Positions 1 through 8,495 of a stretch of 10,098 nucleotides of DNA are shown piece by piece. Each line of letters opens with the position of its first letter. Position 1 is the first letter of the stretch. The notes under the pieces are model-generated. The model was not told the DNA's origin. It was given only the letters and a program-made list of their open reading frames with translations, and made no database searches. The stretch spans positions 1-10,098 of the forward strand of contig CAZNIQ010000025.1 in NCBI GenBank assembly GCA_964573185.1. Direction: 5' to 3'. The DNA is from Candidatus Woesearchaeota archaeon (lineage in GTDB: Archaea; Nanobdellota; Nanobdellia; Nanobdellales; CAZNIQ01). Made by a program: the position numbers and the translations under genes.

Positions 1-1338
1 TATTCGGTCGTAGATTATTCCATTTTCAACATATTTTTCTTTAAATTCTTCAAATGTTTCAAAGTATTCTGAAATTCTTGTCTCTAAAATGTTTTCATAT
101 ACAGCCCTTTCAATTAATCTTTGATTTACATTTAGCATTTCCGCAATTTCTTTAACAGATTTTCTTGGATATAACCCTATTGCAACCAACTTGGCTTCTT
201 TTCTTTCTTCTCTATTTACAATTTTTCTTCTTAAATATTCTGCTACGACTAAACCTTCTCTTTGTTTTAAAGAATAAGCATATCCTATTTCTGTCAAGAA
301 TTTATAAACATCCTTTTCAGATTTCAGGTATAATCTATACATTACTTTTCCATCATATTCTTTCACTTTGTATATTTCAGATTCTATTCCAAATTCTTTC
401 AATATTTCTTTTATTTCTTCTAAGAATTTAACTAAGTTTTCTTCTAATTCTTTTACTTTTACAAATGTTAAACTTATCTGTAAAGCTGTTTTACCTTTAA
501 CTATTGGCTTTGAACCGTCTGAACCAAATAAACCTGCTAAGAAATTTGCTTTAACCCATTTTGGGCTTTCCTTTAACCATTCTGGTATTCTGAATTCTGC
601 TTTTGTTTTCTCACCAACAGGAGCTCCCAATTTAATTAATAATAATGCAAAAGCTTTTGAGGTAATCTTAATAGAATATTCTTTTCCTTCAGTTTCATAT
701 TCATAACCCCAAGGAGATTTTATCTTTATTTTTCTTTTCCTTTCATAAATTCTTGAAGCTTTAATACTTAATTTTTCTAGATCTCTTCTTAATTCTTCCA
801 ATCCTTCCTTTTCACCGTAGAACCAAACAATATATCTTTCTCTCTTCTTCCCTCTCTCTTCTGTTATTATTCTAGTTATGCATCCATCTCCAATTAGATA
901 ACCTAAAATTCTAGCAAGGATTCCAATTCTTAAATCATTTGATTTCAAAGGTAACAATTTTCTTTCTTTAAGATACTTAATTATTTGTGGGTCATATCTT
1001 TCGAAATCTTTTTCAGTTAAAATTACTTTTTCTTTTGGTTTTTCAAACTCAACACCTTCAAATGGGTAAACAGCTATATACTCTCCTACTTTTAGTTCTT
1101 TAGCTAATTTCCATCCTTCTTTTGTTAAAACTGGATGATCAAAAGATAATTCTAGTTCCCTTCCAGTTTCTGTTTTTATCTTTATTATGAACTCGTCAGA
1201 GGGTCTTTCAGATATAAATAAAATTCTGCTTCTCTTTTCCTTTGTTCTTAACTCTACTTCATTTAATAAAGGTATTAAATCTTTTATTTTAATTCTAAAA
1301 CCTAAATCCGTTAGTACTTCGGTATTTCCAGGCAAGCA
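1..1338 (-). mobile_element. Intein with LAGLIDADG homing-endonuclease domain, inserted in RtcB directly after GFDIN; C-terminal splice junction is outside the window
   Basis: After extein ...GGIGFDIN the sequence continues [14 protein letters not shown] (Cys1 codon 1338..1336, intein block A-like). This is followed by [12 protein letters not shown] (block B-like, TxxH type). Two LAGLIDADG motifs follow: [15 protein letters not shown] (about 883..903) and [14 protein letters not shown] (about 511..543). ENGIIYDRI at the window edge resembles block F. The RtcB motif would normally continue GFDINCGVR. Confidence 0.85.
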
Positions 1339-1626
1339 ATTAATATCAAAGCCTATTCCGCCAGGAGTAATTATTCCTTCATTTAAATCAAAAGCAGCAA
1401 CACCTCCAATTGGAAAACCATAACCTTGGTGTCCATCGGGCATTACGATCATCCATTTTTGAATACCCGGTAATGTAGCAACATTTCTTGCTTGTTCTAA
1501 CGTTTTATCTTCTTGCATTTTCTTAAGTAGTATTTCTGAAGCATATATTCTTGCAGGAACTCTCATTGGGGGCTCTTTTGGTATTTCCCAAATAAGATCA
1601 GAAACTTTTCTCAGCTTAATGTACAT
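1..1626 (-). CDS. rtcB: RNA-splicing ligase RtcB, N-terminal part interrupted by an intein; the rest of the gene lies beyond the left window edge
   Basis: Manual minus-strand translation from ATG 1626..1624 stays open to base 1 (542 codons). It is absent from the ORF track because it runs off the edge. The N-terminus [31 protein letters not shown]...[31 protein letters not shown]...PGGIGFDIN carries the conserved RtcB motifs (PDxHxGYGxPIGG, GGIGFDIN followed by Cys). Confidence 0.9.
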
Positions 1627-1656: not shown

Positions 1657-1704
1657 ATGAGGAGGGGCACACTCTCTGAGAATGATGAGAGGAGCGAGAG
1701 CCGA
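1657..1704 (+). ncRNA. Candidate box C/D sRNA-like element with degenerate terminal boxes, coincident with codons 1-16 of the downstream CDS
   Basis: Layout is ATGAGGA (C, 1 mismatch to RUGAUGA), 12 nt GGGGCACACTCT, CTGA (D', 1676..1679), GAA, TGATGA (C', 1683..1688), 12 nt GAGGAGCGAGAG, CCGA (D variant, 1701..1704). The 12/3/12 spacing is canonical and the internal boxes are perfect, but both terminal boxes are imperfect. The segment is locally GC-rich relative to its surroundings. Confidence 0.4.
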
Positions 1705-2847
1705 ATACTTCTTGTTCGTAAAATAAAAGATAAGGAAGCGTACCCACCAAAAGAAGACTCCTTCTTATTACAAAAATATGTTAAAATTTTTGCTAAAGGA
1801 ATAGTTTTGGATATTGGCACTGGTACTGGAATTCAAGCAATAACAGCAGCTTTAAAATCTAACGTCAAAAGAGTAATAGCCTCTGATATTGATAAAGATG
1901 CATTGATTATTGCAAAGTTTAATTCTGAGCTAAATGGAGTTTATGAAAAGATAATTTTTGTCCAATCCAACTTATTCGAAAGAATTCCAAAAATAAAATA
2001 TGATACTATTATTTTTAATCCCCCATATTTACCTGAGGAAGGAGTAGAGGATTATAAAACAAAACTTTGGACGGTTGGAGGTGAGGAAGGAAATGAACTT
2101 ATCTTAAGGTTTTTAGAAGAAGCTTGGAAATATTTATATAAAAATGGCATTATTCTTTTAGTTTTTTCATCTTTAAGCAATCCTAAAAAGATATTATCTT
2201 TTGCAGAAGAATTAGGATATTCATATAAGCTTTTAGAATCTAAAAGATTTTTCTTTGAAGAAATCTATGTTTACTTATTCAGCAGGTCTCATGATCATCA
2301 TCTTTCAGCACAGGAAACGTTCATCACCGAAGGTTGGCATTCTCATATTTATTTAACAGATAGAAATACTATTATAAAAAAGTTTAAAGAAAATTTAAGG
2401 TTAAACTATGAAAAGGAAAAATATTTTTTATTAAAGCTAAAGGATTTCGATTTTACTCCAAAGATTATAGATTTTGATGATAGCGAAATGAAAATAGAAA
2501 TGGAATATATTAAAGGAAAAACATTGAAGGAAGTTATTAAAAAAGGAAAGTTAACTGTCGATTTAATTAAGGATATTTTGGAGATTTGTTACACGCTAGA
2601 TAAATTGAGAATAGATAAAGGGGAGATGAATAGACCATGGGAACATATAATAATTTCAGATAGAATTGTCTTTATTGATTGGGAGAGAGCTAAAGAAACT
2701 AGAAAGCCTTCTAATGTAACAAATTTTCTACAGTTCTTACATAAAATTAAATTTATTGATATAACAAAAATAAAAGATATTTTAAGGAAATATAAGAAAA
2801 CCTATGATAGAAAGTATATTTTAGAGATAATCAGAAATCTAGGATAA
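1657..2847 (+). CDS. Fusion protein: N-terminal HemK/Mtq2-type (archaeal HemK-related) SAM-dependent methyltransferase plus C-terminal divergent Bud32/RIO-like kinase-fold domain
   Basis: The methyltransferase part (aa ~27-208) has YPPKEDSFLL, VLDIGTGTGIQAI (SAM motif I) and IIFNPPYLP (NPPY, codons 121-124 at 2017..2028), and ends ...FFFEEIYVYLFS like stand-alone archaeal HemK-related proteins. The C-terminal part (aa ~225-396) has GWHSHIYL...TIIKKF, KIEMEYIKGKTLKEVI, RIDKGEMNRPWEHIII and VFIDWE. These align by eye to the Bud32 elements (G-loop, VIIK, MEYIxG, HxDLxxxN, DFG) but with substituted catalytic residues. Confidence 0.75.
   Translation: MRRGTLSENDERSESRILLVRKIKDKEAYPPKEDSFLLQKYVKIFAKGIVLDIGTGTGIQAITAALKSNVKRVIASDIDKDALIIAKFNSELNGVYEKIIFVQSNLFERIPKIKYDTIIFNPPYLPEEGVEDYKTKLWTVGGEEGNELILRFLEEAWKYLYKNGIILLVFSSLSNPKKILSFAEELGYSYKLLESKRFFFEEIYVYLFSRSHDHHLSAQETFITEGWHSHIYLTDRNTIIKKFKENLRLNYEKEKYFLLKLKDFDFTPKIIDFDDSEMKIEMEYIKGKTLKEVIKKGKLTVDLIKDILEICYTLDKLRIDKGEMNRPWEHIIISDRIVFIDWERAKETRKPSNVTNFLQFLHKIKFIDITKIKDILRKYKKTYDRKYILEIIRNLG
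2279..2327 (-). ncRNA. Box C/D sRNA, antisense to and fully inside the fusion CDS at its domain junction
   Basis: Minus-strand layout is GTGATGA (C, 2327..2321), 12 nt ACGTTTCCTGTG, CTGA (D', 2308..2305), AAGA, TGATGA (C', 2300..2295), 12 nt TCATGAGACCTG, CTGA (D, 2282..2279). All four boxes are perfect, both guides are exactly 12 nt, and the segment is a local GC island. Confidence 0.8.
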
Positions 2848-3651
2848 TTTTTCTAGTACTTCTTTTGCAATTTCTTTTATCTTTTCATCTTTTACATTTT
2901 CTAAAATATATTCCCAAACATTTTTTGAAAAATTATAATTAACCAAAATCTTAAGTAAACAATCGTAATACTTTTTATATTTTTGGTATTTTTCACTTTC
3001 TTTTTCTGGTATACTTAAAAGTTTATTTTTGATCTGCTCATATAATTTAAATCCTAGTTTTACGTCTAGTAATCCATTTGGAACAAACAAATCTATTAAT
3101 ACTTCCTCAAAATCTGGAGGTAAGTTAATTTCGTTATAGTCAAATAATATATGCAACAGTTCATGTAGAAATCCGGAAAACTTTTCTTCAACACTTCGTC
3201 TTTCGTTTTTACCAGCTGATTGGAAAATTATATATCTGTCCTTATATACAAGTGCACTTCCAAAAGATATCGTAGGAGAAAGATTATAAACTAAGTAAAC
3301 TTCTACTTCATTAGGGAATTTCTTTATCAAAAAAGTTTCCTTAATTATTTCTAAAGCTTCTTCTATTTTTTCATTATAAAAGCCTTCAAATTTATTTTTC
3401 AATTCTATCAATTCTTCCTTTATTTCCTCAAACCATTCAATTTTATAATCTACTTTTATCTTTTTATCAAGAATTCCTAATAAAAATTCCTTTCCTTTTC
3501 CCTCTAAACATTTAGAACGAAATGTATATACCAACTTTGCTAATTTAAAATCTAGGAATTGAAAAAATAAAGGATCTAGATTTATAATATGTGATCTATA
3601 TAATAATGAAGCCAATTGTGCTTCTTTAGAGACAACTACCTTTACTTTCAT
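2839..3651 (-). CDS. Hypothetical protein with HExxH motif (possible zinc metallopeptidase-like)
   Basis: Intact 270-aa ORF with coding-like K/E/I-rich composition. It contains a single HELLH motif (aa 163-167, 3151..3165) in the context FSGFLHELLHILFDYNE. I recognise no other family signature. The 3' end overlaps the convergent fusion CDS by 9 nt. Confidence 0.6.
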   Translation of the reverse strand: MKVKVVVSKEAQLASLLYRSHIINLDPLFFQFLDFKLAKLVYTFRSKCLEGKGKEFLLGILDKKIKVDYKIEWFEEIKEELIELKNKFEGFYNEKIEEALEIIKETFLIKKFPNEVEVYLVYNLSPTISFGSALVYKDRYIIFQSAGKNERRSVEEKFSGFLHELLHILFDYNEINLPPDFEEVLIDLFVPNGLLDVKLGFKLYEQIKNKLLSIPEKESEKYQKYKKYYDCLLKILVNYNFSKNVWEYILENVKDEKIKEIAKEVLEKLS

Positions 3652-3689: not shown

Positions 3690-3738
3690 TCAGGAGCTTA
3701 GAGGCTCATCAATAATCAGCTCCGCCTGAAATCATCAT
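3690..3738 (-). ncRNA. Box C/D sRNA (intergenic)
   Basis: Minus-strand layout is ATGATGA (C, 3738..3732), 12 nt TTTCAGGCGGAG, CTGA (D', 3719..3716), TTAT, TGATGA (C', 3711..3706), 12 nt GCCTCTAAGCTC, CTGA (D, 3693..3690). The flanks (AUUUUAA 5' and ACAAAAU 3') can form a short terminal stem. It is the GC-rich island of an otherwise A/T intergenic region. Confidence 0.85.
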
Positions 3739-3766: not shown

Positions 3767-4522
3767 ATGCTTGTAGACACACATTCGCATATCTTTTTTT
3801 ATAAAGAGAAAGTTGATGATGTAATAAAAGAATGTAAGGAAAAAGGAGTTAAATACATTGTTGAAAATGGTTTGAATGTAGAAACTAATAGAATTGTTTT
3901 AAATGAAGCTAAAAAATATGATATTGTTCTAGCAGCCTTAGGATTTCATCCAGTGGATATCTCAAAGGAAAAAGAAGATATTATTGAAAAAGAAATAGAA
4001 TTCATTAAAGAAAATAAGGATAAGATTGTTGCCATAGGAGAAGTTGGATTGGATTATTACTGGGTAAAAGAAAAAGATCTACAAGAGAAGCAGAAAAAAT
4101 ATTTATATAAATTTATTGAACTAGCAGAAGATATTAAAAAACCTTTGATAGTCCATTCTAGAAATTCTGAAAAAGACATTATAGATATTCTAAGCACAAC
4201 AAAAGCAAAAGTTATTTTACATAGTTATATGGGGAGGATTTCTTATGCTAAAAAAGCTATTGATTTTGGATTTTATTTTTCTGTCCCATCTGTAGTTTAC
4301 AAAAGAAAAGATTTGCACAGATTAATAGAGGAAATTCCTTTAGAGTTAATTTTAACTGAAACAGACTCTCCTTTTTTAGATCCAGTAGGTTACAGAAATA
4401 ATAAGCCATGGAAAGTAATTTACGGTTTAGAAACAATTACTAAAATAAAAAAAGTTGATTTAGAAGAATTAAAGGCAATAATAATTAGAAATTTTGAGAA
4501 AGTATTTCAAGTAAAAGTTTAG
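3767..4522 (+). CDS. tatD: TatD-family metal-dependent hydrolase/DNase
   Basis: N-terminal MLVDTHSHIFF (DxHxH metal site), GEVGLDYYW, PLIVHSR, VILHSY and LTETDSPFL match the TatD/amidohydrolase signature order. Intact 251-aa ORF. Confidence 0.88.
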   Translation: MLVDTHSHIFFYKEKVDDVIKECKEKGVKYIVENGLNVETNRIVLNEAKKYDIVLAALGFHPVDISKEKEDIIEKEIEFIKENKDKIVAIGEVGLDYYWVKEKDLQEKQKKYLYKFIELAEDIKKPLIVHSRNSEKDIIDILSTTKAKVILHSYMGRISYAKKAIDFGFYFSVPSVVYKRKDLHRLIEEIPLELILTETDSPFLDPVGYRNNKPWKVIYGLETITKIKKVDLEELKAIIIRNFEKVFQVKV

Positions 4523-5042
4523 AATTTAATACCTCTGGATGAAAAGTGAAACCATAAATCTCTCTGTTTTTTACCTTAAAAATCGCTGGTTCATCTTTAA
4601 CATATCCTAAAATTTCAAAATTTTCGCTTAAAACAGGATACCTCACTATTAAAAAATAAGCTCTAAATTTGCCAAAAATAGAATTTACATCATAAACTCC
4701 AATAAATCCTTTTTTCTTTAGTTTACCCCCAAATGTTAATGCTATTATTTGAGATCCTGCACCTACTCCTATCACTTTCTTATTCGTATTTTTAATCCAT
4801 TTGAACTTATCTAAATAGTTTAAATATTCAAAATCTTTAATAGCAGTTCCAGATAAAATAATTACATCCTCTTTCGGTTCTTTCTCCAATTCTTTATAAT
4901 GAATTACTTTAACATTTCCTTTTTCTTTAAAAATGTCTACTAAAGGTCCTACAAACTCTTCTTCATGCAACTTATATTTACATAAAGAAATTATCAGGAT
5001 CGAGAGTCCCTCATCATTTTCAGAGTGGGATAACGTCATCAT
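4485..5042 (-). CDS. Class-I glutamine amidotransferase-like protein (GuaA subunit A-like fold) lacking the nucleophile cysteine
   Basis: ILIISL (beta-1-like), VIILSG, VIGVGAGSQIIALTFGG in place of the GxCxGxQ nucleophile elbow, and YGFTFHPEV (His/Glu of the triad). The only canonical in-frame starts are ATG 5042 or 5039, both inside the C box of the overlapping sRNA. Confidence 0.65.
   Translation of the reverse strand: MMTLSHSENDEGLSILIISLCKYKLHEEEFVGPLVDIFKEKGNVKVIHYKELEKEPKEDVIILSGTAIKDFEYLNYLDKFKWIKNTNKKVIGVGAGSQIIALTFGGKLKKKGFIGVYDVNSIFGKFRAYFLIVRYPVLSENFEILGYVKDEPAIFKVKNREIYGFTFHPEVLNSKLLLEILSQNF
4994..5042 (-). ncRNA. Box C/D sRNA coincident with codons 1-17 of the GATase-like CDS
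   Basis: Minus-strand layout is ATGATGA (C, 5042..5036), 12 nt CGTTATCCCACT, CTGA (D', 5023..5020), AAA, TGATGA (C', 5016..5011), 13 nt GGGACTCTCGATC, CTGA (D, 4997..4994). All four boxes are perfect and the segment is a GC-rich island. A TATA-like ATTTTTAAA (complement of 5067..5075) sits about 29 nt upstream of the C box. Confidence 0.8.
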
Positions 5043-5080
5043 TAAGATTTTAAATTTTGTTTAGAATTTAAAAATTAGAT
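5043..5080. promoter_or_regulatory. 38-bp divergent promoter spacer between the sRNA/GATase-like unit (minus) and tRNA-Gln (plus)
   Basis: Plus-strand TTTTAAAT (5048..5055) is centred about 29 nt upstream of tRNA position 1 (5081). Minus-strand ATTTTTAAA (5075..5067) is centred about 29 nt upstream of the C box/ATG at 5042. The symmetric spacing fits archaeal TATA boxes; unverified. Confidence 0.4.
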
Positions 5081-5116
5081 AGCCCCGTCGTCTAGCGGCC
5101 AAGGATGCGGGGTACC

Positions 5117-6169
5117 ATGGCGGCCGACCCCTTCCAACTTCTTTATTCCACAGTTAAACATTTGGAAAAGGAAATGAATGTTTCTTTAGATGAAGTAGCT
5201 GTCACCTATCCTCATTCAGAGATTTCGCGAGAATTTGTTAGAAGACTGCGTAGAAGATTCAAAATCAGAATAAAAGGAGAAGGAACTTTCCATACAACTG
5301 GAAGATTATTAGGATTGGCATTAACAGATGCAAATTTAAGATCTGCATTAAGTGGCTACTTTATAGTTGGAACGACCAGAATGGAAACATTTGAAATTTA
5401 TAAGAAACTTTTTAAAGACATAGTTCTTTTTACAGATTATCCTAGATATATAAATGGCAATCCATTATTACCTCTTTACATGTTGTCTAAAGACAAAACC
5501 TCTGTTAAAAAAGAAAGTATAAATAAGCTTAAAATGCTGCTAACGGACAATTTAGATATTTTTGAGGAAAAAGGGATCTTTGATTTTATAGCAAGCTGTG
5601 TAGATTTTGACGGAGAAGTACATGGCAGAACATTTGTTATTTATAGAAAAGAAAATAGCAGGAAGGGGCAAATATTATCTAAACTTTTCTTATTTTTTGA
5701 AGAAATTGGCATATTAAAAATCACAAATTATGGTTTAAATACATGGAAAGATAGAATATCATTCAAAGTTTCTGCAAAGTATATACGAAATATAATGTTA
5801 TTGCATCCTAATAAAAGGATTGCTTCAGATATTTCAATTCCAAGTATAGTTTTTACAAAAGAAGAACTAGAATGCCTTAGGAAATACCTAAAAGAGGTTA
5901 AATTAATTAAACAAAAGTATGCATACAAATATCTTCTATTATTTAATGATATAAAGGCGGCACAACTGTTAAAAGATAAAGGATTTAAAATAAGTATCTT
6001 TGGTAAAAATATTGCAAAATATTTTGGAGATAAAGCATTACTTCTAGCAATTTTAGATATTATCGGATTTAATATAAAGAACCTGATTCCTCCGTATAAA
6101 TATCCGAGTAGAATATACGAACTTTTGGATAAAGTTGAATATATAAAAAGCCATATAAAGGTTAAATGA
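5117..6169 (+). CDS. Intron-encoded two-motif LAGLIDADG homing endonuclease with a C-terminal extension of about 140 aa
   Basis: Motif 1 is RLLGLALTDANL (LLGLALTDA at 5306..5332). Motif 2 is FDFIASCVDFDGEV (IASCVDFDG at 5588..5614). They lie about 95 aa apart, as in single-chain LAGLIDADG enzymes. The start is set at ATG 5117, the first ATG inside the intron. The track start 5105 lies in the tRNA exon, and ATG 5174 is an alternative. Stop TGA is at 6167..6169, 10 nt before the clamp. Confidence 0.8.
   Translation: MAADPFQLLYSTVKHLEKEMNVSLDEVAVTYPHSEISREFVRRLRRRFKIRIKGEGTFHTTGRLLGLALTDANLRSALSGYFIVGTTRMETFEIYKKLFKDIVLFTDYPRYINGNPLLPLYMLSKDKTSVKKESINKLKMLLTDNLDIFEEKGIFDFIASCVDFDGEVHGRTFVIYRKENSRKGQILSKLFLFFEEIGILKITNYGLNTWKDRISFKVSAKYIRNIMLLHPNKRIASDISIPSIVFTKEELECLRKYLKEVKLIKQKYAYKYLLLFNDIKAAQLLKDKGFKISIFGKNIAKYFGDKALLLAILDIIGFNIKNLIPPYKYPSRIYELLDKVEYIKSHIKVK
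5119..5133 (+). repeat. 5' arm of a 15-bp perfect inverted repeat (GC clamp) closing the intron
   Basis: GGCGGCCGACCCCTT is the exact reverse complement of 6179..6193. Confidence 0.95.
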
Positions 6170-6178
6170 AAAAATGTA

Positions 6179-6193
6179 AAGGGGTCGGCCGCC
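6179..6193 (+). repeat. 3' arm of a 15-bp perfect inverted repeat (GC clamp) closing the intron
   Basis: AAGGGGTCGGCCGCC is the exact reverse complement of 5119..5133. Confidence 0.95.
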
Positions 6194-6239
6194 GGGCCCG
6201 AGTTTGGTCCCCGTGACCGGGGTTCGAATCCCCGCGGGG

Positions 6240-8495
6240 CTAGTAAACTTTAACTTCTATTTCAGTTCCCTTTCTATATAAATAATAGCTTTTTGCAGCA
6301 GCTTCTTTAAAAATTTCATCATGTGTACAAATAATTAATTGGAAATTCTCCAAAGATTTTAAAGTTTCTGCAAGTTTCCTTCTTATTCTTTCATCTAAAG
6401 ATTCTGTAGGCTCATCTAATAATAGAAAGCCTATATTTTTTGATAACAGATTTATTAATGCAAATCTAAAAGCCAAGTCTAAAGCTACTATTTGGCCTCC
6501 AGATAGGGACGCTTCTTCCAAAGGTAAAACAACATCCCTCTCACCAATTTTCTTCTTTACATATATTTTATAAACAAAATCTTTCCTTCCCCTTTCAACT
6601 CTTATCTCAACACTTTCAATATCATCATATATGTAAATCCTCTTAAACCAATAATTTAGATAAATAGTTAATCTTTTGGCAACTTCATCTCTTACCCTTA
6701 TCTTTATTTTTTGGAATACAGTAGCAAGCTTGCTTATTATATTTACAAATTTTTCTAACTCTTCGATGTACTTCTTAAGTTTTTCAACATATTCTTTCTT
6801 CTCTTTTAAGTATTTCAAGAATTTTATATCTATTTTAGGTAAGCTTTCCAGTTCATCTTCAACTTCCTTTATTTTCCTTTCTATTTCTTCTAATTCTATA
6901 CCATACCTCTTAACGATTTCTTTTAATTCCTCTAACTCTTTTATTTTTTCTTTCATCTTAAAGATCCTATATCTTTGAATTTCCAAATCTCTTAACTCTT
7001 TTTCTAATCTACTTTTAGTTTCTTCCAATTCTTTTACACTTCTCTCAATCTCTTTCTTCTTCAAATAACTTAAAGCAGAATATACTTTTTCATAGATCAA
7101 AATTTCGTTTAATTCTTTCTCAAAGTTTTCCTTTATTCTTTCTAATTCTTCTATTTTATCAGTACCAAATTCCTCTAAGGCAAAGTTTAAATAATATTTT
7201 CTTTTATTATAAATCTCTCTCTTCTCTTCTAACTCTTTTTCTAAATTTAAGATTTCTCTTTTTATTTGTAAATCTCTTTTTTTCAACTCTTCTAACTCTT
7301 TTACCTTTTCTTCTAATAATTTTTTTGGATTTTCAATTCTTGAACCACACACAGGACATTTCGGTTCCTTTACTTTTTCTAGTATCTCTATGAGTTTTTG
7401 AATATCCTTTATCTTAACATTTAATTCCCTCAACTCTTCTTTTTTCTTTTCTAATTTTTCTTCTAATTCTTTTATATCCTCTTCTTTTATATTCGGTAGC
7501 TCTTTCAAATTCTTTATAATTCTCTCTATTTGTTTTATTTTATTTAAAATTAAGGACTTTCTTGAGGTATCTACCTTTATTTTCTTTACCGTTTCCTCCA
7601 GCTCTTCTATTTTCTTATCTAAGAACTCTTTAAAATCATCCGTTAAAATATCATACTTTGCACTTTCTTCTTTCAATTCTAATATTATATTTTCAACTTC
7701 TCTTAACTCTTCTTTAATTTTACTATATTTTTCATTAATTTCTTTTTCTTTTTTCAACAACTCCTCATCGATTTCCCTCTTCAAATATTTATATCTTATA
7801 TTTATCCTTTCTAACTCTTTTAATTGTCTCTCCAATTCTTCCCTTCTTTTAGCTAATTCTTCTAGTTTTCCAATATCCTCTCCAAAGTACTTTTGTATAG
7901 AAGCGCTTTCTCTTGTATATTCGGATTTTGCTCTTAGTAATTCTTTTCTTAAATCCTCTAGAGCTTTGCTTAAGGTATCTGCAATCTCTGTAAATTTTTT
8001 CAAATCTAATAATTCTTCTAATTCTTCTGAAAAAGTTTTCTTTCCAGAGCCTAAAACCAAAGATCCTAAAGTTCTTTGTCTAATGAATATAACATTTACA
8101 GCCTTATCTAAATCTTTTACTTTGAGTAAATTTTCTAATACATATCTAGTTATAGTTTCATTTCCAGATGCAACCACTTTTCCATTTTTTCTTATAATAC
8201 CATTTCCAGAAGGAACTTCTCTTATAATTTCATATATATTTTCATTATCCTGTAAAACAACTGTAACTTTTCCTAGAGAACTTCCTCTTCTGACTAAATT
8301 TTCTTTTCTTCCACCTTTTTCGTAAGAAGTTAAAGCTTGAGAGCCAAATAAAGCATAAATTATACCTAATAATATAGATGTTTTACCGGTTCCGTTTTCG
8401 CCTAAAATCAAAGTAACTTTATCATCAAAATCTATTGCTAAGTTTTTATGAATTCTAAAATTTTCTAATACTACTTTTTTTAATTTAACTACCAT
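6240..8495 (-). CDS. rad50: DNA double-strand break repair ATPase Rad50
   Basis: Walker A GENGTGKTS is near the N-terminus. A long E/K-rich coiled coil carries a central zinc hook, KEPKCPVCGS (CPVC at 7358..7347, aa 380-383). The ABC signature SLSGGQ, Walker B LLLDEPT and H-loop ICTHD are at the C-terminus. The start overlaps the mre11 stop by 7 nt. Confidence 0.93.
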   Translation of the reverse strand: MVVKLKKVVLENFRIHKNLAIDFDDKVTLILGENGTGKTSILLGIIYALFGSQALTSYEKGGRKENLVRRGSSLGKVTVVLQDNENIYEIIREVPSGNGIIRKNGKVVASGNETITRYVLENLLKVKDLDKAVNVIFIRQRTLGSLVLGSGKKTFSEELEELLDLKKFTEIADTLSKALEDLRKELLRAKSEYTRESASIQKYFGEDIGKLEELAKRREELERQLKELERINIRYKYLKREIDEELLKKEKEINEKYSKIKEELREVENIILELKEESAKYDILTDDFKEFLDKKIEELEETVKKIKVDTSRKSLILNKIKQIERIIKNLKELPNIKEEDIKELEEKLEKKKEELRELNVKIKDIQKLIEILEKVKEPKCPVCGSRIENPKKLLEEKVKELEELKKRDLQIKREILNLEKELEEKREIYNKRKYYLNFALEEFGTDKIEELERIKENFEKELNEILIYEKVYSALSYLKKKEIERSVKELEETKSRLEKELRDLEIQRYRIFKMKEKIKELEELKEIVKRYGIELEEIERKIKEVEDELESLPKIDIKFLKYLKEKKEYVEKLKKYIEELEKFVNIISKLATVFQKIKIRVRDEVAKRLTIYLNYWFKRIYIYDDIESVEIRVERGRKDFVYKIYVKKKIGERDVVLPLEEASLSGGQIVALDLAFRFALINLLSKNIGFLLLDEPTESLDERIRRKLAETLKSLENFQLIICTHDEIFKEAAAKSYYLYRKGTEIEVKVY

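Follow-up and report, generated by a model that had tools for sequence, protein, structure and literature searches.

A probable antisense box C/D sRNA gene within a coding sequence

The stretch of DNA analyzed here (hereafter, the window) comprises 10,098 nucleotides of contig CAZNIQ010000025.1 of a Candidatus Woesearchaeota archaeon (assembly GCA_964573185.1), and contains an open reading frame (ORF) of 396 amino acids (positions 1657–2847, plus strand) encoding a HemK2/Mtq2-like methyltransferase followed by an ArkI-family kinase. Inside this ORF, positions 2279–2327 of the minus strand probably constitute a genuine dual-guide archaeal box C/D small RNA (sRNA) gene, the bases of which, on the plus strand, also specify the 17 residues that join the two domains. 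Read on the minus strand, the element has the sequence GTGATGA-ACGTTTCCTGTG-CTGA-AAGA-TGATGA-TCATGAGACCTG-CTGA, in which all four boxes are perfect and both guides are 12 nt long. In the order of the RNA, it consists of the C box GTGATGA (2327–2321), the plus-strand reading of which falls within F-I-T, the D' guide (2320–2309), the D' box CTGA (2308–2305), the D'-C' loop AAGA (2304–2301), the C' box TGATGA (2300–2295; plus-strand reading within D-H-H), the D guide (2294–2283), and the D box CTGA (2282–2279).

The box and spacing features by which archaeal box C/D sRNAs are recognized were found in the element, namely a C box (RUGAUGA) and a D box (CUGA), a D' box (CUGA) and a C' box (UGAUGA) with a short loop of 3–9 nt between them, here CTGA-AAGA-TGATGA, spacers of about 12 nt, and a total length of about 50–60 nt, the core, counted from the C box through the D box, measuring 49 nt and the mature sRNA probably carrying a few flanking bases beyond it. 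A regular-expression scan for this architecture returned three perfect copies in the window, every one on the minus strand (2279–2327, 3690–3738, and 4994–5042), as compared with none in 3000 Markov-1 random windows. The original prediction of a perfect antisense C/D sRNA with 12-nt guides was hence borne out by the minus-strand sequence. In an Rfam search, positions 2276–2330 (minus strand) aligned over the full length of the model with snoPyro_CD (RF00095) at 29.9 bits (E = 0.005), which is under the gathering score of 45. The element resembles this family and the archaeal sR families in its box order, 12-nt spacers, overall length, and full-length model alignment; its score and its unrelated guides and flanks, on the other hand, place it outside any curated sequence family.

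Upstream of the element, a TATA/box-A-like sequence, GTTAAATAAATAT (2345–2357, minus strand), which starts 30 nt from the C box within the kinase codons for SHIYLT, was noted as a weak candidate promoter. Box A of Nanoarchaeum equitans reads TTTAAA and lies at about −26 relative to the start of transcription (PMC3491384), and TTTAAA was likewise present at −29/−30 upstream of the sRNAs at 3690–3738 and 4994–5042 as well as of another at 21078–21125 in the related locus L001 described below. In the mechanism we propose, the embedded sRNA would be transcribed from the minus strand, perhaps via this TATA-like box, would associate with L7Ae, Nop5, and fibrillarin, and would guide 2'-O-methylation in trans at sites of ribosomal RNA (rRNA) or transfer RNA (tRNA). 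A gene for Nop5 (PF01798) was encoded in L001.

Conservation of the element in an orthologue

Comparison was made with the only diverged orthologue of the host protein, P0002 (87% protein identity), encoded on a 124-kb contig of GCA_054017035.1 (locus L001). The copy of the sRNA at L001 10623–10671 was identical to the window at 48 of 49 positions, and the sole change, at window position 2304, turned the D'-C' loop from AAGA into TAGA. A sliding window of 49 nt, placed at 1047 positions along the conserved part of the gene, contained 6.5 differences on average, and one difference or fewer only when it started at 2278 or 2279. Synonymous divergence (dS) was 0.22 in the linker versus 0.76 in the flanks, and the nonsynonymous divergence (dN) of the linker was 0, while the third-position test by itself was marginal (P = 0.05). 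The conservation of boxes and guides in this single genome pair was accordingly above neutral expectation, as anticipated for the class. Furthermore, the most conserved nucleotides of the gene coincided with the segment of the protein least constrained as such, which is disordered and varies in length and sequence among homologues. The earlier suggestion that the odd His/Ser-rich linker is a by-product of an RNA gene was thus supported. The RNA gene would dictate the sequence here, and the protein would tolerate it on two grounds, the flexibility of the linker and the near absence of stop codons from antisense C/D sRNAs.

Several of the observations weigh against an RNA gene. The conservation test consists of a single sequence pair, to which coding constraint contributes; the Rfam score lies below the threshold for membership; TATA-like motifs are common in a genome of 27% G+C, and hence weak evidence; and the counterpart of the promoter-like motif in L001 is degraded to GTTAGATAGATAT. 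The Rfam score and the poor conservation of the promoter-like motif, together with the marginal third-position test, would fit a silent or fossil element, or a coding coincidence whose conservation reflects protein-coding constraint only. Such an explanation is nevertheless most improbable, given that four perfect boxes persist in two genomes despite a dS of about 0.76 and that the 49 nt most conserved in the entire gene fall in the least constrained, disordered part of the protein, with their only substitution in the loop. The chance expectation of the architecture is, moreover, close to zero, and the element has a G+C content of 45%, typical of sRNAs, in a gene of 29% G+C. Based on the boxes, the conservation, the abundance of sRNAs in the lineage, and the match of neighboring guides to conserved rRNA sites, the latter two described below, the element was taken to be a functional sRNA gene.

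Host protein and the domain joint

The N-terminal domain of the host protein (amino acids 28–207; 1738–2277, plus strand) carries the NPPY motif within FNPPYLP and matched Pfam PF05175 as well as NF011529 (175 bits, cut-off 162) and TIGR00537 (HemK2/MTQ2; 119 bits, cut-off 87), and Foldseek matched it to N6AMT1/KMT9 and Mtq2. The C-terminal domain (amino acids 225–396; 2329–2844, plus strand), which had been described as kinase-like, is, as judged from sequence and fold, a minimal kinase of the ArkI (AQ578) family of RNA 2'-kinases. It matched Geoglobus acetivorans Ark1 (PDB 8yv4) with an E-value of 4e-32, a template modeling (TM) score of 0.91, and a root-mean-square deviation of 1.6 Å, and Thermococcus TkArkI (PDB 7vnx) with an E-value of 9e-19 using the family profile. 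The DFE-type metal loop and the C-terminal YK(R/K) motif of the family, as defined by Ohira et al. (2022; PMC9095486), are present as IDWER and RKYKK, respectively. ArkI produces 2'-phosphouridine 47 of tRNA (PMC9095486). With ArkI and Ark1 the host domain shares the fold and both motifs; it differs from them in being joined to an Mtq2-like methyltransferase and in having lost its own start codon, and its role as a kinase is predicted. Both domains were found to be under strong purifying selection, with a dN/dS of about 0.07 in each.

As had been predicted, the element is read through on the plus strand as amino acids 208–224 of the 396-residue ORF (FSRSHDHHLSAQETFIT; linker codons 2278–2328). 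In the AlphaFold2 model, which had a mean predicted local distance difference test (pLDDT) score of 89.7, the last methyltransferase strand (201–209) and the first kinase strand (220–225) enclose a disordered segment (212–218, pLDDT < 50). This layout of strand, loop, and strand indicated that the sRNA sits exactly at the domain joint, in agreement with the position originally proposed for it. No in-frame ATG, GTG, or TTG was present in the sequence near the start of the kinase domain, so that this domain can be made only as part of the fusion.

The host ORF was uninterrupted and identical in two more independent assemblies, ENA ERZ27262635 (L023) and Logan SRR7968109 (L024), which represent the same population, L023 being 99.95% identical to the window across its whole length. 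The identity of the ORF in three assemblies excluded a hidden stop codon or a sequencing or assembly fusion, a concern that the original prediction had itself raised.

Other sRNAs of the lineage and reading through them

The lineage was revealed to be rich in such elements, since five perfect C/D genes were found in the 17 kb of L023, which extends the window, and five in the 21 kb of L001; seven further sRNAs of a build identical to the embedded one were recognized across the window, L023, and L001. For the 490-kb genome of N. equitans, 26 sRNAs have been reported (PMC3491384). Three loci of Nanopusillaceae, each of 12.5 kb, yielded no convincing C/D sRNA, the one regular-expression match being a degenerate one in L025 over the kinase start codon. 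One of the sRNAs of the lineage, at L023 16632–16679, was located 33 nt upstream of tRNA-Ser(CGA) on the same strand.

Among the eight sRNAs of the lineage, 13 of the 24 frames of the antisense strands were free of stop codons, as against one of 24 for the sense strands. Reading through such genes was seen at both ends of the host ORF. At its 5' end lies a C/D-sRNA-like element in the sense orientation (1657–1704, plus strand; ATGAGGA-12-CTGA-GAA-TGATGA-12-CCGA; Rfam sR33, 18.3 bits), the C-box AUG of which is the start codon of the host ORF. It encodes an N-terminal extension of about 27 amino acids that is lacking in all homologues and is fast-evolving (dN 0.32), and its version in L001 (10001–10048, plus strand) reads ATGAAGA..CAGA. 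At the 3' end of the gene in L001, the sRNA at 11175–11223 (minus strand), the orthologue of that at 3690–3738 in the window, overlaps the methyltransferase–kinase gene in antisense and gives rise to the C-terminal extension EDHHSSASPEIIIK. The ORF crossing this 3' antisense sRNA in L001 and the sRNA-like 5' start in both genomes together indicated that ORFs of this lineage extend through sRNA genes.

In the window, a mere remnant of the 3' antisense sRNA (TCAG..AGGAT) remains at the gene end (2820–2850), and an ORF of 270 amino acids without known domains (2839–3651, minus strand) separates the host gene from the intact sRNA at 3690–3738. As compared with L001, the remnant and the additional ORF indicate that rearrangement breakpoints adjoin sRNA genes. 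In addition, the listed GATase ORF (4485–5042) shares its first ATG with the C box of the sRNA at 4994–5042, so that the real start of this ORF may be further downstream.

Origin of the two-domain gene

The original prediction held that two adjacent genes, once separated by the opposite-strand sRNA gene, were welded into one ORF. Per-domain searches and trees led us to revise the view, based on its wide occurrence in Woesearchaeota, that the fusion is merely an old one, and we now slightly favor, on phylogenetic and alignment grounds, a lineage-specific fusion of a stand-alone methyltransferase gene with a minimal ArkI kinase gene across the antisense sRNA. Closest to the kinase domain (46–60% identity) were stand-alone proteins of 177–192 amino acids from Nanopusillaceae (Nanobdella, strain YN1, and Nanopusillus) and allied metagenome-assembled genomes. 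These stand-alone minimal kinases begin with MKKIxEGWHS, and they share with the domain in the window and with Geoglobus Ark1 three indels and the absence of an N-terminal helix. In the kinase tree, rooted on TkArkI, the domain fell inside the clade of stand-alone minimal ArkI proteins (Geoglobus Ark1 and Nanopusillaceae) in 255 of 300 bootstraps, and grouped with the fused kinases of Woesearchaeota in only 2 of 300. The methyltransferase domain grouped with the stand-alone proteins P0141-143 in 121 of 200 bootstraps and never with the fused set. Stand-alone methyltransferases stop 2–7 residues past the YVY strand (e.g., ..YVYEFSFSRK*), so the ends of the separate proteins map to the two edges of the sRNA, with only the sRNA lying between them. 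Under the favored reading, the two once separate genes would have merged by reading through the antisense sRNA between them, which slightly overlapped both.

The contrary explanation, an old methyltransferase–ArkI fusion into whose permissive linker the sRNA inserted, or in which it arose in place of an ancestral helix, was regarded as unlikely, though by a narrower measure than the other alternatives considered in this study. In this scenario, the stand-alone sister genes would have arisen by fission, perhaps with the break at the present sRNA, as would agree with the proposal that C/D sRNAs flank split genes in Nanoarchaeum. In its favor, the same architecture was found in more than 100 matches of 355–425 amino acids from Woesearchaeota and other Nanoarchaeia. 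The linker length also varies among the homologues, being 5 amino acids longer in most of them, which is not what a simple insertion of 49 nt would give. The ProRS synteny is common to the stand-alone kinases of two branches, fitting a single relocation, and the monophyly of the stand-alone nanoarchaeal kinases was weak (30 of 200 and 36 of 300 bootstraps). In the distant fused proteins, the linker forms a helix (KSxLLKELEKK..IxYLAxGKRG) that is homologous to the one at the N terminus of TkArkI. The grouping of the kinase domain with stand-alone ArkI proteins, including that of the euryarchaeon Geoglobus, and its lack of this helix along with the three shared indels, imply that a fused ancestor would have required several independent fissions, and the methyltransferase domain too grouped with stand-alone genes. 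Furthermore, C/D boxes were absent from three distant fused loci, and no remnant of an sRNA was seen beside the stand-alone genes in L025–L030.

The fusion across the sRNA has weaknesses of its own in addition to the wide occurrence of the architecture. The trees are neighbor-joining trees of about 180 columns with moderate support. Among the relatives' loci examined, none was found to have methyltransferase and kinase genes side by side with an sRNA in between; the stand-alone kinases there instead adjoin ProRS, and the stand-alone methyltransferases lie elsewhere. Accordingly, the domain trees and the termini of the stand-alone proteins speak for the welding as originally proposed, while the precursor arrangement that it presupposes was missing from these loci. 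The stand-alone ArkI genes in L025–L027 and L030 were syntenic with a class II aminoacyl-tRNA synthetase gene (ProRS-type), and the two genes overlapped by 4 nt in three of the genomes.

Guides and their predicted targets

In archaeal box C/D sRNAs, a guide is expected to pair with its rRNA or tRNA target over at least 9–10 bp, and the modified base is the one that pairs with the fifth guide nucleotide upstream of the D or D' box (the N+5 rule). The target strings of the two embedded guides are CACAGGAAACGU and CAGGUCUCAUGA. By construction, each guide is a perfect complement of the host mRNA, as the original prediction had pointed out and as the layout confirmed, and the N+5 position would fall on G2313, the third base of the Gln219 codon, for the D' guide and on U2287, the first base of the Ser211 codon, for the D guide. 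This complementarity is a consequence of the layout and is not necessarily functional.

Targets in trans were sought in proxies, namely the 16S, 23S, and 5S rRNAs of Haloarcula (L003), E. coli rRNA, a soil archaeal 23S rRNA (thaumarchaeal-like), and a few tRNAs. No match above chance was found for the embedded guides in any of these rRNAs or tRNAs, which counts against the proposed guiding in trans; the best, between the D' guide and position 259 of the Haloarcula 23S rRNA (CACGGGCAAUGU), comprised 9 Watson–Crick and 2 G·U pairs and reached only the 90th percentile of the null. This site is a hairpin of 23S domain I, the stem-loop form of which equals the predicted target CAC-AGGAAAC-GU(G). 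Targets were likewise not found in tRNA-Gln, tRNA-Ser, or the tRNAs and 5S rRNAs of relatives. The counterpart of this 23S hairpin in the lineage and the loop of 16S helix 8 are candidate sites for the embedded guides. The force of this negative was gauged with the neighboring sRNAs as a control, in which a clear proxy match was obtained for only 3 of 14 guides, so that a missing match is weak evidence. E. coli rRNA was discarded as a proxy for being too distant.

Where matches were obtained for the neighboring sRNAs, they fell on conserved sites. The D guide of 3690–3738 paired at 11 of 12 positions with the GTPase-centre loop of 23S rRNA, GAGCUUAGAAGC (E. coli ~1061–1072), and the D' guide of 4994–5042 paired through 10 Watson–Crick and 2 G·U pairs with 16S rRNA at GGUGGGGUAACG (E. 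coli ~254), both matches exceeding the 99th percentile of the null for Haloarcula rRNA. These matches to conserved rRNA sites indicated that elements of this kind behave as methylation guides. A placement of the latter D' guide on 16S helix 7/8 beside the D' guide site was ruled out, as it maps to GGUGGGGUAACG.

The rRNA of the lineage itself was sought with patterns built from the predicted guide targets. The pattern AGTGGGATAACG..CACAGGAAACGT returned nothing across metagenomes, CGCCTGAAA..GATCGAGAGTCC returned just three chance matches, all bacterial, across GTDB genomes, and AGCTTAGARGCAGC..ATCGRGAG returned 13 soil archaeal 23S fragments across metagenomes, none of them from this lineage. 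In addition, none of the guides was shared with the 26 published sRNAs of N. equitans, and the embedded guides did not occur with four or fewer mismatches in the relatives' loci L020–L022 and L025–L029.

Given the perfect complementarity of the guides with the host mRNA and the lack of a trans target among the proxies, the sRNA might instead be a cis-acting antisense regulator that pairs with the host mRNA, or directs its 2'-O-methylation at G2313 and U2287, and thereby tunes translation or stability, a possibility raised for antisense sRNAs by Lui et al. (2018; PMC6009581). We consider it improbable. Such complementarity is common to any antisense gene, and thus uninformative, and so is a missing proxy target when just 3 of the 14 neighboring guides gave a clear match. 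Moreover, each of the ten sRNAs internal to coding sequences in Pyrobaculum has one or more targets in rRNA or tRNA (PMC6009581), and the neighboring sRNAs in the present lineage resemble ordinary rRNA guides. Guiding of rRNA or tRNA methylation in trans remains the role we propose for the embedded sRNA. A combined reading, in which the sRNA marks the seam of a recent fusion and its ribonucleoprotein might also methylate the host mRNA in cis at G2313 and U2287, was judged a long shot, slightly less credible than cis regulation taken by itself.

Relation to known systems

C/D sRNA genes overlapping coding sequences form a known class, to which the present locus belongs. Among six Pyrobaculum species, 97 of 526 C/D sRNA genes overlap coding genes (Lui et al., 2018; NAR 46:5678, PMC6009581), and in their category 4, comprising 10 sRNAs located wholly within coding sequences, 9 are antisense, all lie near the 3' ends of the genes, and all have a predicted target (PMC6009581). 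As in these cases, a complete dual-guide C/D gene lies here in antisense where the protein tolerates change, and the same speculation on antisense action and mRNA methylation applies. Unlike the Pyrobaculum sRNAs, which are near 3' ends, belong to Thermoproteales, and have predicted targets, the element described here occupies a joint in the middle of a gene in a genome-reduced nanoarchaeote, and no target was found for it in the proxies. The locus thus differs from the known class in its position between two domains in mid-gene, where the sRNA apparently forms the linker of a fusion.

In N. equitans, the majority of the sRNAs overlap mRNAs, and several border split genes (Randau, 2012; Genome Biol 13:R63, PMC3491384). 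The sRNAs of the two organisms are alike in being compact (about 50–60 nt) and devoid of a terminal stem, and the present host is a related nanoarchaeote with split-tRNA features. In N. equitans, however, the sRNAs are situated beside the halves of split genes, whereas here the sRNA lies within a joined gene where relatives have two. The C/D sRNA in the intron of archaeal tRNA-Trp and the intronic small nucleolar RNAs of eukaryotes are likewise guide RNA genes nested within another gene, but they lie on the sense strand in introns and are freed by processing, whereas the present one is antisense within translated codons.

Neighboring genes

A tRNA-Gln(UUG) gene was located at 5080–6243 (plus strand) of the window, interrupted after position ~32–35 by 1,089 nt. 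The insert carries an ORF of 354 amino acids (5105–6169), for which no match was found in Pfam or NCBIfam. The two parts of the tRNA gene are flanked by complementary G+C-rich 13-mers, GGCGGCCGACCCC and GGGGTCGGCCGCC. Such zipper-type 13-mers recall the trans-spliced tRNA halves of N. equitans; here, however, the halves follow one another in order on a single strand. ARAGORN missed the gene under default settings and called it when introns were allowed, and an Rfam match to mascRNA at 6207–6241 corresponds to the 3' half of this tRNA. Upstream of the host gene, window positions 1–1626 (minus strand; L023 4633–7512) belong to a gene for the RNA ligase RtcB with an intein carrying a LAGLIDADG endonuclease domain, as identified from the Pfam families of L023.

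Implications

No case of a complete RNA gene supplying the peptide between two conserved domains was found described in the literature consulted. If the fusion across the sRNA is true, it would provide a concrete route of gene fusion in ultra-compact genomes, in which an upstream ORF losing its stop codon reads through into the next gene because antisense C/D sRNAs are nearly stop-free. The locus also bears on the proposal of Randau that C/D sRNAs mark split-gene breakpoints in Nanoarchaeota, given that the joint coincides with the gene ends of sister lineages. If, together with the recent fusion, methylation of the host mRNA in cis were true, it would link how much is made of an enzyme modifying tRNA or the translation machinery to how abundant the methylation machinery is, and the locus would then represent a natural intermediate for the role of C/D sRNAs in the joining and splitting of genes in this group; the two defined nucleotides provide a clean test case for mRNA methylation directed by guide RNAs in archaea. 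The fusion of an Mtq2-like methyltransferase with ArkI is, in addition, a protein worth attention in the study of how thermophilic DPANN archaea modify their tRNAs.

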